Position numbers and translations under genes: made by a program | The notes under the pieces: generated by a model | Told to the model about the DNA's origin: nothing | Seen by the model: the letters and a program-made list of their open reading frames with translations, nothing else | Databases searched by the model: none | Shown here: positions 3,368 through 25,490 of the stretch, piece after piece | Position numbering within the stretch: position 1 is the first letter of the stretch | How the letters are laid out: every line of letters starts with the position of its first letter | Virus record (IMG/VR): IMGVR_UViG_3300045988_081277 | Coordinates: 1 to 36,691 of that record | DNA length: 36,691 nucleotides | Direction: 5' to 3' (one strand) | DNA from: a virus

Positions 3368-3559
3368 ATGAAAAAGATCATGGCGTTAATTTTTACAATA
3401 ATTTCAGGAGTAAGCATGTTTGGAGTCATTACAGGATATATACTTGATGCACTTGGCTTATGTGGAGCAGGCTTCTATCTAATAGGAATTGGAGAAGTTG
3501 TATGTGTTGCATCTGCAGCGGTAGTTGTCACAATTGGTATTTTTAGTTATTTAGAGTAA
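3368..3559 (+). CDS. Small membrane protein (two TM helices)
   Basis: MKKIMALIFTIISGVSMFGVITGYILDALGLCGAGFYLIGIGEVVCVASAAVVVTIGIF; ATG 3368 follows agaggtttta. Confidence 0.6.
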   Translation: MKKIMALIFTIISGVSMFGVITGYILDALGLCGAGFYLIGIGEVVCVASAAVVVTIGIFSYLE

Positions 3560-3646
3560 TAGGGTATAAAAAAACGTACTCCTACAATAAAGAAGTACGC
3601 GGATCATATTAGTTTAAACAATTATATCATAAGGAGTGCAGGCTTT

Positions 3647-4087
3647 GTGGAAGATATGTTACTAGATTTACCTCAAATTGATTATGATGGAACAGCTGAT
3701 AACGTTGTAAAGTTCCTGACAAACAGAAGTTATTACCCTAGATTGTATGATATATACATGCAAGCTAATCCAGAGAAATTACAGAGTCCAAGTTTGAGTG
3801 GTATGCCTGGAGGTAGTGTTGGAAACAGCAACGAAAATAAAATGATCAAATATTTGTATGCAAAGGCAATTGTGGATGGAGTTAGGCAAACGATAGACAA
3901 GGGTTCGCATGAGTTAAAAGTAGTGTTTAGTAACATAACCGGAGAGATAAGTGCGGTTGAAGCGATGCGAATGCTACACTATGAAAAAACAAGATACTAC
4001 TTAATTAGAAAACAGGCTTTAAATGAATTTGCCGATATTTTAGAAGTTCAAAATTTGCATTGCCCAGATCTACATGCTTATATTTGA
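3647..4087 (+). CDS. ArpU-family phage late transcriptional regulator
   Basis: Its length, its position just upstream of the packaging module, and motifs (VVKFL..., LQSPSLSGMPGGSVGNSNENKM, RYYLIRKQALNEFA) are characteristic of the ArpU family. The start is GTG 3647 or ATG 3656, after aaggag. Confidence 0.8.
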   Translation: MEDMLLDLPQIDYDGTADNVVKFLTNRSYYPRLYDIYMQANPEKLQSPSLSGMPGGSVGNSNENKMIKYLYAKAIVDGVRQTIDKGSHELKVVFSNITGEISAVEAMRMLHYEKTRYYLIRKQALNEFADILEVQNLHCPDLHAYI

Positions 4088-4148
4088 ATATTGCATAAAA
4101 GTGGAGGTCAAAGGGATTTGTTGAAAACGTACATTGAAAACAAAAAGG

Positions 4149-4177
4149 ATGCAATCAAACGGAAAAGGTGTTATTAT
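4149..4177 (+). promoter_or_regulatory. Sigma-A-type promoter with extended -10 (ATGCAA, 17 nt, TGtTATTAT)
   Basis: It has the same gtgttattatat core as the promoter at 24991..25018. It lies in an ORF-free region. Confidence 0.55.
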
Positions 4178-4184
4178 ATTATTG

Positions 4185-4559
4185 TCGAAAGACATAGTTA
4201 ATCATTCATTTCAAAATTAAATAGTTTGCTTTTCAAAGACAGTGAGATGAGTTCGACTCGTCTCTTATGTGGTGTGTAGGAACACCGCACTCTGACATTA
4301 AATAACTTTAGCGTGATATTCTTTAGTTTCTCATGGCTGAGAATAAGCCTCCTTTAGAATGATATTTACTGGAGTGTGGTTCCGGTTCGACCCCGGAACA
4401 CTGCTTTGTGTGTATAGCACTATCTATACCGCAACCACGGCGTTATGTGGTTATAATTGTAATTCCTACTGTTATTTATGTTTGGTTTTTAACTATCATT
4501 TTTCATTTTATTCCATTTCTTTACTAGAGATCAGTCTGTTAGGCTGGTCTTTTTATTTT
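4185..4559 (+). ncRNA. Candidate structured non-coding RNA of about 370 nt (unclassified)
   Basis: It has its own promoter and an intrinsic terminator. Hairpins lie at 4244..4264, 4269..4288, 4328..4343, 4376..4401, 4412..4429 and 4433..4452. There is no ORF with an RBS. Confidence 0.5.
4529..4559 (+). terminator. Rho-independent terminator
   Basis: gatcagtc-tgtta-ggctggtc is an 8-bp stem (two G-U pairs) followed by tttttatttt. Confidence 0.7.
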
Positions 4560-4582
4560 GCAGAGAAGAGGGGGTAATACTA

Positions 4583-5476
4583 ATTTTACGACTAGACGAA
4601 AGAAAAATTCGAAAAGGAAAACCTATTGGACTCCCATATGTTGGAAGCAAGAAAAAAATATCAAAAAAAATCGTGGAGATAATCAAACAAAACTTCGGAA
4701 CTGATATACCAGTTTACGATGTTTTCGGCGGTGGTGGCGCAATTACTGCAGAACTGCTATTGAATAATATGCAGGCCCACTACAATGACTTAGACAGCGA
4801 TGTTACAAGTATGTTTACCAGAGTTATCTCACAAGATAGAGAATGGATCAAAACATTGGCTGTTTCACGCGATGAGTTTCTAACTATCCGTGATAAAAAA
4901 GGAAAAACAGTTGATGACAATTTGAAGTTACTGGTCAATTCTTTTGCGAATAATTCAAAAAATTACTTGTACTGCAAAGAACAGTCCAGGGCAAAATACA
5001 ATCTCGCAATTGAAATTATAAAAAAACATGATGTGTTTAGTGGCTACAAGCAAACGGGAACCTATCGAAACGCTAAACAATCATGGCGACCGGAGCAGTT
5101 AGAACGACTACAACAATTAGAACAACTACAACAATTAGAACAACTACAACAGTTGAAGGAAGCGCGAGGCCCAGAGATAACTAATTATGACTATACAGCA
5201 TTTTCAAATGTTGAGAATGCTATTTTTTATCTGGACCCGCCATACCAAAACACAATGAATGGATATAAATTTGAGTTCAATCATTCGTTATTTTATGACT
5301 GGTGTGTTGAGATGGCAAAAAAAAATATTGTAATTATTTCCAGCTACAGCATTCCAGATCCGCGTTTTAAGGTTGTTTGGGAGTTTAAAACGGCACGTGG
5401 TTCGTTTGCTGGAGGCGTAAATAAGAAGTATGAGCAACTTTACATGGTTTCGGAAGGATTAAATCAACTAAGCTAA
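4583..5476 (+). CDS. Orphan N6-adenine DNA methyltransferase (Dam-like, DPPY class)
   Basis: It contains VFGGGGAIT (FxGxG SAM motif) and FYLDPPYQNT (motif IV). The conserved N-terminal PYVGSKKK box lies upstream of the GTG 4673 used in the ORF track. That upstream extension has no ATG/GTG/TTG, and a GAGGGGG SD at 4568..4574 points to an ATT/ATA-type start near 4577..4583. Confidence 0.7.
   Translation: MLRLDERKIRKGKPIGLPYVGSKKKISKKIVEIIKQNFGTDIPVYDVFGGGGAITAELLLNNMQAHYNDLDSDVTSMFTRVISQDREWIKTLAVSRDEFLTIRDKKGKTVDDNLKLLVNSFANNSKNYLYCKEQSRAKYNLAIEIIKKHDVFSGYKQTGTYRNAKQSWRPEQLERLQQLEQLQQLEQLQQLKEARGPEITNYDYTAFSNVENAIFYLDPPYQNTMNGYKFEFNHSLFYDWCVEMAKKNIVIISSYSIPDPRFKVVWEFKTARGSFAGGVNKKYEQLYMVSEGLNQLS
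5096..5155 (+). repeat. 18-bp in-frame tandem repeat (3.3 copies) inside the methyltransferase gene
   Basis: cagttagaacgactacaa / caattagaacaactacaa / caattagaacaactacaa / cagttg; it encodes (LE[RQ]LQQ)n. Confidence 0.9.
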
Positions 5477-5484
5477 GGCAGAAG

Positions 5485-5979
5485 GTGGTGAGTATTGGTA
5501 CTATGGCAAAAGGATTGTATCAAAAGTGGCTAGAAGATGATAATTTAGTTTTACTCCAGGGATGGAAAAGAAATGGCCTAACTGATGAACAAATTGCTCA
5601 TAATATGGGCATAAGCGTCCACACTCTCAACCATTGGAAGCAAAAATACAAGCAGATAAGGCAATCTCTAAAAGTGGGACGCGAAACGGCCAACTTCATT
5701 GTTGAACGAGAGTTGTTCCAAAAGGCCATTAATGGTAATACTACTGCTATGATTTTTTGGCTAAAGAACAATTGGCGCGATAAATACAACGATAGTGAGT
5801 TGTCGCCAGAAGAACGTAAACTTGCTATTGCACGTATGAAGAAATTAGAAGTTGAAACTAAGAATGTTCAATTACGTAACAAGTCACTTGAAGAAAATGG
5901 CACTGATATTGAAGAAACACTTGATAGAATTATGGATAAGCTTAGCAGTGAAAGCAACAAAGGAAATAATAATAAATAA
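5485..5979 (+). CDS. terS: Terminase small subunit
   Basis: It has an HTH (LTDEQIAHNMGISVHTLNHWKQKY) and the NGNTTAMIFWLKNNWRDKY motif, and lies immediately upstream of terL. The start is GTG 5485 or ATG 5503. Confidence 0.8.
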   Translation: MVSIGTMAKGLYQKWLEDDNLVLLQGWKRNGLTDEQIAHNMGISVHTLNHWKQKYKQIRQSLKVGRETANFIVERELFQKAINGNTTAMIFWLKNNWRDKYNDSELSPEERKLAIARMKKLEVETKNVQLRNKSLEENGTDIEETLDRIMDKLSSESNKGNNNK

Positions 5980-5993
5980 GAAGAGCACTCACT

Positions 5994-7274
5994 ATGAGTG
6001 ATTTTTTATTTGAAAGGGGGTGGTTAAGGTTGGCGTTATCAGATATTCTTACAGCAAAGCAGCAATCTGTATTACAAAGTTATTTACACGATGATTGGCG
6101 TTTGATGATTTTAAACGGTGCTGTTCGGAGTGGGAAGACGTACATTGATAATTGGCTGTTTCTAATGGAACTTAGACGAGTATCAAAACTCGCTAAACAA
6201 CGTGGGATAAAAAATCCCTTGTATATCCTTGCTGGTTTCTCAAGTAATTCTATCTATACAAATGTTATTGCGTCTTTTTATGATCAATTTGGGATAGAAC
6301 TAAAGCCGGACCGCCACGGCCATTATCACTTTATGAATGTAGAAATCATTCCGAGCTACACAGGCACTGAGCGTGGTGTAAATAGTATCAGAGGTGCAAC
6401 GGTATTCGGTAGCTACATCAACGAATGCTCGTTAGCTACTCAGCCCGTGTTTCAAGAAATACTACAGCGTTGTTCAGTTGAAGGCTCAAGAATTATATGT
6501 GACACCAACCCTTGACCGGATAGCCCTAACCACTGGCTAAAGGTGAATTACATTGACAAGAAAGACGATCCCAAGGCTAGGATTAAAGTTTTTAATTTTA
6601 CGATTGATGACAATACGTTTCTTGATCCAGAATATGTAAAAGCTTTAAAGGCACAAACCCCTTCGGGAATGTTTACAGATAGGGCTATCTATGGTCTTTG
6701 GGTATCTGGGGAAGGACTAGTATATCGTGACTTTGATAAAGACAGAATGATGATTGATAAACTGCCGCCTAACCGCTCATATAAATATTATTGTGGGGTT
6801 GACTGGGGCTTTGCTGAAGGGCACGATACATCAATTACAGTGTGGGCCGACGATGAGCAAGGCAACACTTATTTAGTTGAAGAACATACCGCAAACCGCA
6901 AGTACATTGATTACTGGATTGAGGTAGCTAAAGGTATTCAGAAGAGATATGGATACAACATTACCTTTTGGGCTGATAGCGCCCGCGTTGATTATGTGTC
7001 TCAATTTGTCACTAATGGTATACAAGCTCGAAACGCAAGGAAGGATGTTTTGGCCGGGATTGAGTCAGTTGCAGAGCTGATGACTACTGGGCACTTCTAT
7101 GTGCTGAAGAGCGCACCTGATAAGTTCCTTGATGAAATTTATCAATATGTTTGGGATAGCGACAAAGGGGTGCCGATTAAGAAGAAGGATCACGTACTTG
7201 ACAGCACAAAATATGCGATATTTAACGAACATCTAAACAACGACGCTCAATTTATTAATTCAGTTTATATTTAG
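5994..7274 (+). CDS. terL: Terminase large subunit, interrupted by a single in-frame TGA at 6513..6515
   Basis: Walker A NGAVRSGKT is present. The two listed ORFs (5994..6515 and 6543..7274) share one frame, and the conserved DTNP[TGA]PDSPNHWLK motif runs straight across the stop. An alternative start is TTG 6030, after aaaggggg. Confidence 0.8.
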
Positions 7275-24969: not shown

Positions 24970-24990
24970 GTGTTTTTTTCAAAAAACCTA

Positions 24991-25018
24991 TTGCAATTTT
25001 ACACATATGTGTTATTAT
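24991..25018 (+). promoter_or_regulatory. Early promoter (TTGCAA, 16 nt, TGtTATTAT) followed by an ATAGTTGTAAGG box
   Basis: It has consensus-like elements, and related copies occur at 4149, 26029, 26151 and 29942. Confidence 0.65.
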
Positions 25019-25061
25019 ATAGTTGTAAGGAAGACATAAACAAACTAAAGGAGCGATTGAA

Positions 25062-25490
25062 ATGAGTAAGAGGCAAATCATGGAACAAGCATGGAAAATT
25101 GCTAAGAAAGCTGCTAAGAAATTTGGTGGGAAAGCAATCGAATACATTTCTGGGGCATTGAAGATGGCATGGAAAGCAACTAAAGGCTTAACAGAAGAAC
25201 AAATCAAAGCTTTGGTATCCAAAGGCTACAACCGTTGGACTACCGCTGATGGTAAACACGATCGCTTATACTTGAATATCTACAAACATGCTAACATGTT
25301 TGAATACGGCAAATGGAATGGAGAAGAAATTTTTCCATCTCGCCAACGTGCCATCAAGGTTATCAAAGTATGGATTGATGCTAAAACTGGTGAAGTTTTT
25401 AATCATTGCATGATGATTAACCGCTATGTTAGAGAATATCAAATTGCTTTAGTTGATGCTGTAAAAGCAGACTTAGCAAGCGTTAAATAA
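25062..25490 (+). CDS. Hypothetical early protein
   Basis: aaaggagcgattgaaATG. The basic helical N-terminus is MSKRQIMEQAWKIAKKAAKKFGGKAIEYISGALKMAWK. Confidence 0.7.
   Translation: MSKRQIMEQAWKIAKKAAKKFGGKAIEYISGALKMAWKATKGLTEEQIKALVSKGYNRWTTADGKHDRLYLNIYKHANMFEYGKWNGEEIFPSRQRAIKVIKVWIDAKTGEVFNHCMMINRYVREYQIALVDAVKADLASVK

Follow-up and report, generated by a model that had tools for sequence, protein, structure and literature searches.

The window analyzed here, the 36,691 nucleotides (nt) of the IMG/VR virus record IMGVR_UViG_3300045988_081277, contains a non-coding gap (positions 4088–4582) between arpU, which encodes a late transcriptional activator, and the gene for a D12 DNA methyltransferase. 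This gap encodes a conserved, strand-specific structured non-coding RNA of ~370 nt, located between an extended −10 promoter and an intrinsic terminator, that belongs to no described Rfam family. Our preferred explanation, to which we give slightly better than even chances, is that this plus-strand RNA is the 5′ leader of an ArpU-activated late operon, that is, a leader with a tRNA-like core and with a terminator located before the late genes. A preliminary description of the window, made from the sequence alone, had proposed a hairpin-rich, independently transcribed non-coding RNA at this position; the features that it listed are all present in the sequence at or near where it placed them.

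Our comparison used 15 IMG/VR contigs that encode ArpU at 73–97% identity together with metagenome copies, for a total of 17 distinct aligned sequences. All 15 of the IMG/VR contigs contain a homologous stretch after arpU with 68–88% DNA identity (in L013, after two inserted small open reading frames, ORFs), and each copy of the RNA is preceded by an ArpU homologue with 73–97% amino acid identity. BLAST against 50,697 phage records (GenBank/INPHARED) identified no homologue of the region. A search of the genome collection yielded two ArpU loci, both distant, one in Ligilactobacillus agilis and one in L. hayakitensis; the stretches read immediately 3′ of arpU in these contain toxin-antitoxin-like ORFs and no copy of the element. 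The exact pattern of the T-arm-like hairpin described below found no match when searched in IMG/VR; looser patterns led mostly back to the same phage family and in addition yielded three distinct copies from metagenomes that were new, two IMG/VR copies that are truncated, and two metagenome matches due to chance.

The plus strand of the region folds into seven hairpins with a minimum free energy (MFE) of −100.9 kcal/mol (z = −4.3), and none of 100 shuffled sequences folds as well; the z value of the minus strand is only −1.9. Among the 17 homologues, six hairpins (designated H1, H2, the T-hairpin, H3, H4, and the terminator) are paired in 94.4% of the alignment cells, compared with 37–53% in controls in which the pairing was slid along the alignment. 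Pairs changed on both sides, the covariation by which the preliminary description proposed to judge the RNA, number 10, compared with 4.2 ± 1.4 in shuffles and 1–3 in the slid controls. Because G-U cells outnumber A-C cells by 107 to 9, the element acts as a plus-strand RNA; read as the reverse strand, it would lose 13% of its pairs. Thus, the hairpin-rich non-coding RNA of the preliminary description is borne out by plus-strand folding, covariation, G-U asymmetry, and a core that is more conserved than arpU itself.

The conservation is not uniform along the RNA. The core blocks (4261–4300 and 4371–4455) are 82–100% identical to the window, where the DNA identity of arpU is 75%. Between these is a variable insert (4294–4370, plus strand) for which three to four unrelated versions are exchanged among the phages while the flanks stay 82–100% identical; in the homologues with a swapped version, segment 4301–4370 is only 37–39% identical to the window. 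Such a pattern indicates an RNA scaffold that is maintained by purifying selection and accepts different inserts, and not a DNA site or simple common ancestry. The CCTCC at 4348–4352, regarded in the preliminary description as an anti-Shine-Dalgarno-like element, is located in the variable insert and is missing from one type of insert, so we do not retain it as a feature of the RNA.

The same data bear on the alternative offered in the preliminary description, that is, that the region is a pac or cos packaging site that is recognized at the DNA level by terminase and that the hairpins are DNA structure. The element is indeed conserved and located upstream of the packaging module, as such a site might be; however, the excess of G-U (as DNA, G-T) over A-C cells indicates selection on one strand as RNA, and the relation to terS, the gene for the small terminase subunit (TerS), is variable. 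In some copies TerS follows the element at once and in others one to four other genes, mostly methyltransferases, are located between them, so that 0.1–1.9 kb separate the element from terS; L008 and L011 retain the element, and no ORF in the downstream stretch examined matched the TerS of the window. Because ArpU always precedes the element and the downstream genes differ, the element travels with arpU and its promoter and not with the packaging genes. Also, the record of phage Lv-1, which has an analogous leader, has its linear ends ~1.6 kb beyond the leader, after methyltransferase and HNH genes. Finally, the portal protein is SPP1-like, and headful phages usually carry pac within or beside terS. 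We therefore set the packaging site aside as highly improbable.

We give even less credence to the possibility that the conserved product is a small protein encoded by the 72-amino acid ORF (4359–4577) or the 39-amino acid ORF (4408–4527). These ORFs exist, and an ORF of 71–72 residues is also open in L003 and L015; however, neither has a Shine-Dalgarno (SD) sequence, no ORF in 4088–4582 has a Pfam or PHROG match, and the 72-amino acid ORF is missing from most homologues, the two or three nearest relatives alone retaining it. The alignment contains indels of lengths that are not divisible by three, and this ORF crosses both co-varying hairpins and the terminator. The preliminary description had likewise noted that the longer ORF lacks an SD sequence and runs through a terminator.

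The position of the RNA relative to arpU (3647–4087, plus strand; phrog_248 ‘transcriptional activator’, E = 6e−23) suggests how it is expressed. The promoter (4149–4177, plus strand) has a −35-like ATGCAA (4149–4154), a 17-nt spacer, and an extended −10 TGtTATTAT (4169–4177); a search of the window for its pattern gives a single exact match, and it is predicted to start transcription at about 4183–4186. The −35 element is poor and is not conserved; the −10 block, TGnTATTATnnTATTGT, is retained in every one of the 17 homologues as well as in ArpU loci that are far more distant. A repeat-bearing region (4090–4168, plus strand) just 3′ of arpU contains putative activator-binding boxes, including a direct repeat of TTGAAAAC (4121–4128 and 4134–4141) and GGA-rich boxes, e.g., AAACGGAAAAGG (4157–4168); boxes of the CGGAA type with a spacing of ~11 nt occupy the equivalent place in both related and distant ArpU loci. 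In phage phiFL2A, the direct repeats to which ArpU binds are located directly past its own gene, and an ArpU-family protein is the sole phage factor required for switching on the late (terS) promoter (PMC3753634). Because the promoter in the window occupies the place at which activators of the ArpU family turn on late transcription (PMC3753634), we propose that it is controlled by ArpU; by this analogy, ArpU would bind the repeat boxes of the window and the promoter would depend on it.

The other end of the RNA is an intrinsic terminator (4526–4559, plus strand; identified by a terminator scan, −13.3 kcal/mol) that consists of a 12-bp stem (4526–4552) followed by TTTTTATTTT. A terminator is found at the matching position in all of the homologues, followed by a ribosome binding site (RBS) within about 15–30 nt. 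In the window, the terminator ends at 4559 and the SD sequence AGAAGAGGGGG and probable ATT start codon (4583) of the methyltransferase gene (PF02086, phrog_56) occupy 4564–4585 (plus strand), which leaves no room for a promoter; also, a promoter scan of the plus strand from the terminator to 5500 predicted none. Because no promoter separates the terminator from the late genes, the late genes must be transcribed through both the leader and the terminator; and because the promoter is located at a putative site of activation by ArpU and the terminator just before the first late RBS, we take the RNA to be, most probably, the late-operon 5′ leader. This is the layout expected for such a leader, that is, a promoter, a non-coding leader, and an intrinsic terminator before the first late gene without an intervening promoter, with the dependence on the activator proposed from the work on phiFL2A (PMC3753634).

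The preliminary description assigned the promoter to the same family as the early promoters of the phage. That assignment is partly supported by a sister promoter at 24990–25026 (TTGCAA, 17 nt, TGTTATTATAT) that has a good −35 element and no upstream boxes and that shares the −10 element and ~24 of the 31 following bases with the promoter at 4169. The sister promoter is strong and sigma-70-like and is located 3′ of the terminator of the lysis module, ahead of an ORF at 25062–25490. The two promoters fit a common core promoter that is constitutive at 24990 and activator-dependent at 4149.

A promoter and a terminator also constitute the complete transcription unit that would be expected if the element were a free-standing gene for a trans-acting small RNA, that is, if the ~370-nt RNA were itself the product (a tRNA mimic, decoy, or sponge) and read-through were incidental. 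We consider this explanation unlikely, although several of its expectations are realized: the strong structured core stays conserved whichever genes follow it, a variable segment in a constant scaffold would suit a specificity region, and the related promoter at 24990–25026 appears constitutive. However, in all 17 homologues, as well as in other types of leader, the first late RBS follows 20–30 nt after the terminator with no promoter between, and a search for antisense targets of the RNA within the phage found nothing significant (best E = 0.15). The two explanations are compatible, since a terminated leader can act in trans. The ‘independently transcribed’ RNA of the preliminary description therefore does have its own promoter and terminator, and it is probably better read as the leader of the late operon.

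The core of the leader contains a mimic of a tRNA T-arm (4381–4397, plus strand). This hairpin has the 5-bp stem (extendable to 7 bp, 4379–4399), the G-C closing pair (G53-C61 in tRNA), and the 7-nt UUCRANN loop (here UUCGACC) that define the T-arms of tRNAs. The stem is paired in 100% of the cells, with compensated pairs at two positions (C-G/A-U in 8 of the 17 sequences and G-C/A-U in 2 of the 17); the loop variants (UUCGACC, UUCGAUC, UUCAAUC, UUCAAGU, and UUCAAGC) all conform to the tRNA T-loop consensus UUCRANN, and loop positions 1–3 and 5 as well as the closing pair are invariant. The preliminary description had noted two hairpins with T-loop-like loops, and this one, the second, is conserved as such. 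The first, the 9-bp hairpin H1 (4244–4264, plus strand), has a co-varying stem (92% of the cells paired, three pairs changed on both sides) and a loop that differs among subgroups.

The sequences that flank the T-arm can form two competing folds. In fold A, UGUGGUGU (4268–4275) and ACACCGCA (4282–4289) form the local hairpin H2 (4268–4289, plus strand), which is 98% paired with one-sided changes only and has the invariant loop GUAGG (4276–4280). In fold B, GUGGUGU (4269–4275) pairs with ACACUGC (4398–4404) straight after the T-stem, and ACCGCACUCU (4284–4293) pairs with GGAGUGUGGU (4371–4380) to enclose the variable insert. The result resembles the junction of a tRNA or tmRNA, in which the acceptor and T-arm stack over 12 bp and the linker contains GG. 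The candidate tRNA-like domain (4269–4405, plus strand) would then consist of the acceptor-like helix (4269–4275/4398–4404), the GG-containing linker (4276–4283), the long helix (4284–4293/4371–4380), the T-arm (4381–4397), and an unpaired U4405, and GUAGG could play the role of the D-loop against the T-loop. Among the 17 sequences, H2 is pairable in 98% of the cells, the acceptor helix in 100% (17 of 17 sequences), and the long helix in 98%; in constrained folding, the two folds are within ~4 kcal/mol of each other in 15 of the 17 sequences, and the MFE structures of sub-sequences are often fold B. We assign roughly even chances to fold B, that is, to the T-arm being stacked on the 7-bp acceptor-like helix; the main argument for taking it as the relevant fold is that other ArpU leaders show the acceptor/T-arm layout (vide infra).

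The remainder of the leader is also conserved. Hairpin H3 (4407–4433, plus strand; 10 bp with one bulge) begins 2 nt past the acceptor-like 3′ strand, and it is followed by hairpin H4 (4435–4450, plus strand; 5 bp), the loop of which contains an invariant CGUUA; the two are 99% and 98% paired, respectively, each with two pairs changed on both sides. The U-rich spacer that follows (4451–4525) is poorly conserved except for a U-rich box, ATCATTTTTCATTTTATTCC (4495–4514, plus strand), with a core (ATCATTTTT) that is invariant across the 17 homologues. A 16-nt U-rich segment of the box, TTTTTCATTTTATTCC (4499–4514), recurs in the leader of the Lv-1 group (L081, ~4030–4050), which cannot otherwise be aligned with that of the window, and the leader in L118 contains a similar U-rich stretch (~3815–3840). 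The box is a candidate protein site, RNase site, or DNA element.

Comparison with known RNA families was negative throughout the region. We screened 4227 Rfam models, using the gathering score for the whole window and E ≤ 10 for positions 3900–4800. The sole gathering-score match in the window is the salivarius-1 RNA (2776–2831); in 3900–4800, nothing scored better than E = 1.8, the matches being chance ones to miRNA and lncRNA models, and no ROOL, GOLLD, tRNA, tmRNA, or YrlA was found. The preliminary description had doubted that the RNA could be assigned to ROOL, GOLLD, or another family, and the screen agrees with that doubt. The element likewise has no D-arm, no anticodon arm with a 7-nt loop, and no above-threshold tRNA score. 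We rejected an assignment as tmRNA because the segment enclosed by the long helix is not conserved, no CCA follows 4405, and neither ARAGORN at default settings nor Rfam found a match; the only tmRNA call, obtained at a threshold of 50–70%, has an implausible tag.

The T-arm mimic of the window belongs with a wider set of tRNAs and tRNA-like elements that occupy the same slot in other ArpU phages of the Lactobacillaceae. We also compared 78 loci that encode more distant relatives of ArpU. No homologous sequence for the RNA was detected in them by nhmmer, and many nevertheless share a common design: boxes after arpU, often (A/C)CGGAA with ~11-nt spacing; an extended −10 element with a TATTATnnTATTGT-like block; a non-coding leader of 130–1000 nt; an intrinsic terminator; and then the first late RBS within 15–30 nt. 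This design is found in at least six unrelated types of leader after ArpU homologues of 32–70% identity. On the gene strand, T-arm-like hairpins (at least 5 bp, G-UUCRANN-C) are concentrated in these stretches, with 41 in the 94.6 kb downstream of arpU vs 3 in the other 819 kb. Some of these hairpins belong to real tRNA genes (Asn, Trp). In phig1e, an annotated phage, the unannotated gap after the gene for the ‘transcriptional activator’ contains tRNA-Tyr and tRNA-Ile; in LBR48, it contains a tRNA with a UUA anticodon, that is, of the ochre-suppressor type (L123, 3150–3224), as well as a T-arm element that resembles an armless tRNA; in TMW 1.591 P1, it contains a tRNA with an 8-nt anticodon loop (L122, 3036–3112); and in phiJB (L124, 2956–2986), it contains T-arm-like hairpins, including an uninterrupted helix of 12 bp with the T-loop as its cap.

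The cases that are not tRNAs have a shared layout: a 7–8-bp helix with a 3′ strand that starts 0–1 nt past the T-stem, a linker of 9–28 nt, in most cases with a GG, and, in most cases, an immediately following hairpin that often begins with AUAG. This acceptor/T-arm layout fits 14 of the 15 hairpins that we examined, or 10 of 11 when near-identical copies in related loci are counted once; for the L062/L086 type, the fit may be due to chance. Copies of the layout include four in L118 (3560–4140), two in the Lactobacillus jensenii phage Lv-1 group (L081, 3900–4125; NC_011801, 36697–37292), and one each in L073 (4487–4531), L116 (4582–4629), and the L108 group; the minihelix modules thus occur up to four in tandem, with ~170-nt spacing. 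The closing helix in the Lv-1 group contains two compensated pairs. The Rfam tRNA model aligns from end to end with one of the modules in L118, the D and anticodon arms being treated as deletions (17.7 bits; the threshold is 29), and a covariance model of the T-arm, H3, and H4 of the window has weak matches (E = 0.1–0.5) located exactly at the Lv-1-type modules.

Two further arrangements were encountered downstream of arpU. Other phages of L. salivarius and L. agilis (L061, L063, and L065, ~3570–3660; L072 and L029, ~3460–3535) contain a separate conserved unit that consists of a consensus sigma-70 promoter, a ~75-nt RNA, and a terminator (CCCTTCCG...CGGAAGGTTTTTTT), with no Rfam match at the gathering score. 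A short type of leader (L054, L057, L078, L080, and L091) has a closing stem, GUAAGUU/AAACUUAC, in the first ~130 nt past the promoter; in L078 the stem becomes AUAAGUU/AAACUUAU, that is, a compensated pair. This short type ends in a terminator like that of the window.

The presence of real tRNAs, a tRNA with an aberrant 8-nt anticodon loop, and armless tRNA-like sequences in the equivalent slot of related phages also raises the possibility that the element is a decaying remnant of a phage tRNA, that is, a functionless pseudo-tRNA conserved only by recent common ancestry; that tRNA finders do not detect it would be consistent with decay. We consider this very unlikely: the core blocks are more conserved (82–100%) than the adjacent coding gene (75%), the stems remain paired via compensatory changes, the T-loop consensus and its G-C closure are invariant, and conservation extends to H3, H4, and the U-rich box, which have no counterpart in a tRNA.

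Several observations weigh against a late leader with a tRNA-like core. The changes in the acceptor-like and long helices are only transitions opposite G or U and are neutral for both folds; because such transitions preserve pairing in fold A and in fold B, covariation does not discriminate between the two. Full-length ensembles favor H2 in 12 of the 17 sequences, and the probability of the acceptor helix is near zero in most. At default settings ARAGORN identifies no tRNA or tmRNA, and the Rfam tRNA model has no match at E ≤ 10. The cloverleaf that relaxed ARAGORN settings (80% threshold, introns allowed) place at 4269–4405 was rejected, since the window yields 54 such calls vs ~44 per shuffle and the anticodon differs in each homologue, so it carries no weight. 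With respect to expression, the sister promoter, which has a near-identical −10 element and initial transcribed sequence, a good −35 element, and no boxes, suggests that the promoter at 4149 could be partly constitutive, and the start site, the efficiency of termination, and the dependence on ArpU are all predictions by analogy. Finally, inspection of the alignment, which was not a systematic search, revealed no alternative terminator/antiterminator pairing, and the terminator module is swapped between leaders, with that of the window resembling the terminators of unrelated short leaders. Because no antiterminator pairing was seen and the terminator is exchangeable, we disfavor a classical riboswitch-type switch.

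With these points included, the late-operon leader is the explanation that we retain, and it would operate as follows. Transcription would start at the extended −10 promoter (4169–4177), which has no usable −35 element and is located just downstream of the repeat boxes beside arpU, when ArpU turns it on. The transcript would pass through H1, H2 or the acceptor-like helix, the variable insert, the T-arm mimic, H3, and H4, cross the U-rich spacer, and meet the intrinsic terminator shortly before the first late RBS. Transcripts would then either stop, freeing the ~370-nt RNA, or continue into the methyltransferase, terminase, and structural genes. Candidate modes of read-through are a leaky terminator, a resistance conferred by ArpU-modified polymerase, and assistance from the RNA; a purely RNA-autonomous mechanism is disfavored because transcripts that read through from arpU would also contain the RNA. 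The core would be tRNA-derived or tRNA-mimicking, with the T-arm stacked on helix 4269–4275/4398–4404 as a 12-bp acceptor/T-arm minihelix that may be recognized by the host RNase P, with a cut 5′ of G4269, and RNase Z, with a cut after U4405. These cuts would free a small tRNA-like RNA; the RNA downstream of it would start 1–2 nt before H3, that is, with a hairpin-capped 5′ end, and such ends are protected in Firmicutes. The dependence of the promoter on ArpU, the junction fold, the processing, and the way in which the terminator is passed are the parts of this scheme that we infer.

An extension of this scheme is that the acceptor/T-arm modules of the ArpU leaders are phage ‘mini-tRNAs’, that is, RNAs excised by RNase P and RNase Z, finished by the CCA-adding enzyme, and acting in trans in the late phase, e.g., as decoys or sponges for host enzymes or for immunity toxins that target the acceptor end or elbow of tRNA; the element in the window would be a copy with a large insert. 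We regard this idea as quite improbable; if true, the mini-tRNAs would act when the capsid proteins appear.

Comparison with known systems places the element close to, although not within, several of them. It resembles phage tRNAs and tRNA-like stable RNAs in its canonical T-loop, G-C closure, possible abutting acceptor-like helix, and location in a slot that contains genuine tRNAs in other phages, and recognition by RNase P and RNase Z is predicted for it as for these; the tRNA cluster of phage T4 includes the stable RNAs known as species 1 and 2. In contrast to phage tRNAs, it lacks a D-arm, an anticodon arm, and an encoded CCA, has a 100-nt insert between the 5′ strand of the acceptor and the T-arm, and is embedded in an mRNA leader with additional hairpins and a terminator. 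With the tRNA-like domain of tmRNA it shares, in fold B, the acceptor helix, the T-arm, a degenerate GG-containing substitute for the D-loop, and a long enclosing helix, as well as G3-U70 in most homologues; it differs from tmRNA in having no conserved tag frame, no pseudoknots, and no CCA and in the lack of conservation of the enclosed segment. With its candidate mimic of the acceptor/T-arm within a longer transcript and beside the start of an mRNA, the element resembles the plant mitochondrial t-elements (PMC1920247) and MALAT1 mascRNA, and this type appears to be the closest functional analogy for end formation that depends on RNase P and RNase Z; the organisms differ, processing of our element is a prediction, the element is located upstream of an intrinsic terminator, and arrays occur in some phages.

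The arrangement of a structured non-coding leader after a late promoter, followed by a terminator that must be passed, is shared with lambda PR′-6S RNA-tR′, and the cis-acting antitermination RNAs HK022 put and EAR; however, there is no likeness in sequence or structure and no Rfam match to these, and the activator is of the ArpU type and not Q. ROOL and GOLLD are structured non-coding RNAs of Lactobacillales prophages that are often located near tRNA genes (PMC5737381); the RNA described here is much shorter (~370 nt) and matches neither at E ≤ 10. A search of the literature on ArpU together with terminators or antitermination, and on tRNA-like elements in either phage late leaders or Lactobacillus prophages, identified nothing that describes the element.

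The window represents a phage, or prophage, of the siphovirus type with a host in the Lactobacillales, probably Ligilactobacillus: the salivarius-1 RNA is present, and the nearest genome matches to ArpU are those of L. agilis and L. hayakitensis. The salivarius-1 RNA (RF03030, 76.8 bits) is ~0.8 kb upstream of arpU, and at least 10 related loci have the motif 0.6–1 kb ahead of arpU, with two copies in L080. The gene order is arpU, the 495-nt gap, the D12 DNA methyltransferase, TerS (5485–5979), the large terminase subunit (TerL) split into two ORFs, and the SPP1-type portal. Translation of the methyltransferase from ATT 4583 is indicated by the PF02086 and phrog_56 matches, which begin at residue 2; this codon is located 8 nt past the SD sequence AGAGGGGG in a frame that has been open since 4493, the earliest ATG, GTG, or TTG (4673) is 30 codons after it, and L014 has an ATT at the equivalent position in a like arrangement.

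TerL (5994–7274) is broken by an in-frame TGA (6513–6515) that corresponds to a 6-nt insertion (TTGACC), the window encoding NP*PDSPNHW where homologues have NPDNPEHW or NPGSPVHY. The same sequence is present in the independent Logan contig L119, and it could reflect a defective prophage, recoding, or a common assembly origin. We rejected the RNA as a suppressor tRNA for this TGA because its would-be anticodon region is the non-conserved insert. Small ORFs that by eye appear toxin-antitoxin-like (MazE/MazF-like, HicA-like) are inserted after arpU in L029, L030/L073, L064, L013, and L067; in L013 and L073, the inserted ORFs separate arpU from the late promoter and leader.

Activators of the ArpU/RinA type control the packaging and lysis genes in many Gram-positive phages, and in published work a promoter is all that is described between the gene for the activator and terS; the phages of the Lactobacillaceae instead have a structured, tRNA-like leader and a terminator at this place. 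The leaders provide at least one new RNA family for curation of the Rfam type, although the family in the window is itself narrow, and, if the proposed relationships are true, they form a natural series from tRNA to a minimal tRNA mimic. If the leader controls read-through or undergoes processing by tRNA enzymes, it would add an unrecognized layer of RNA to the late switch, which governs both transduction and prophage induction in the lactobacilli of the gut and of food.

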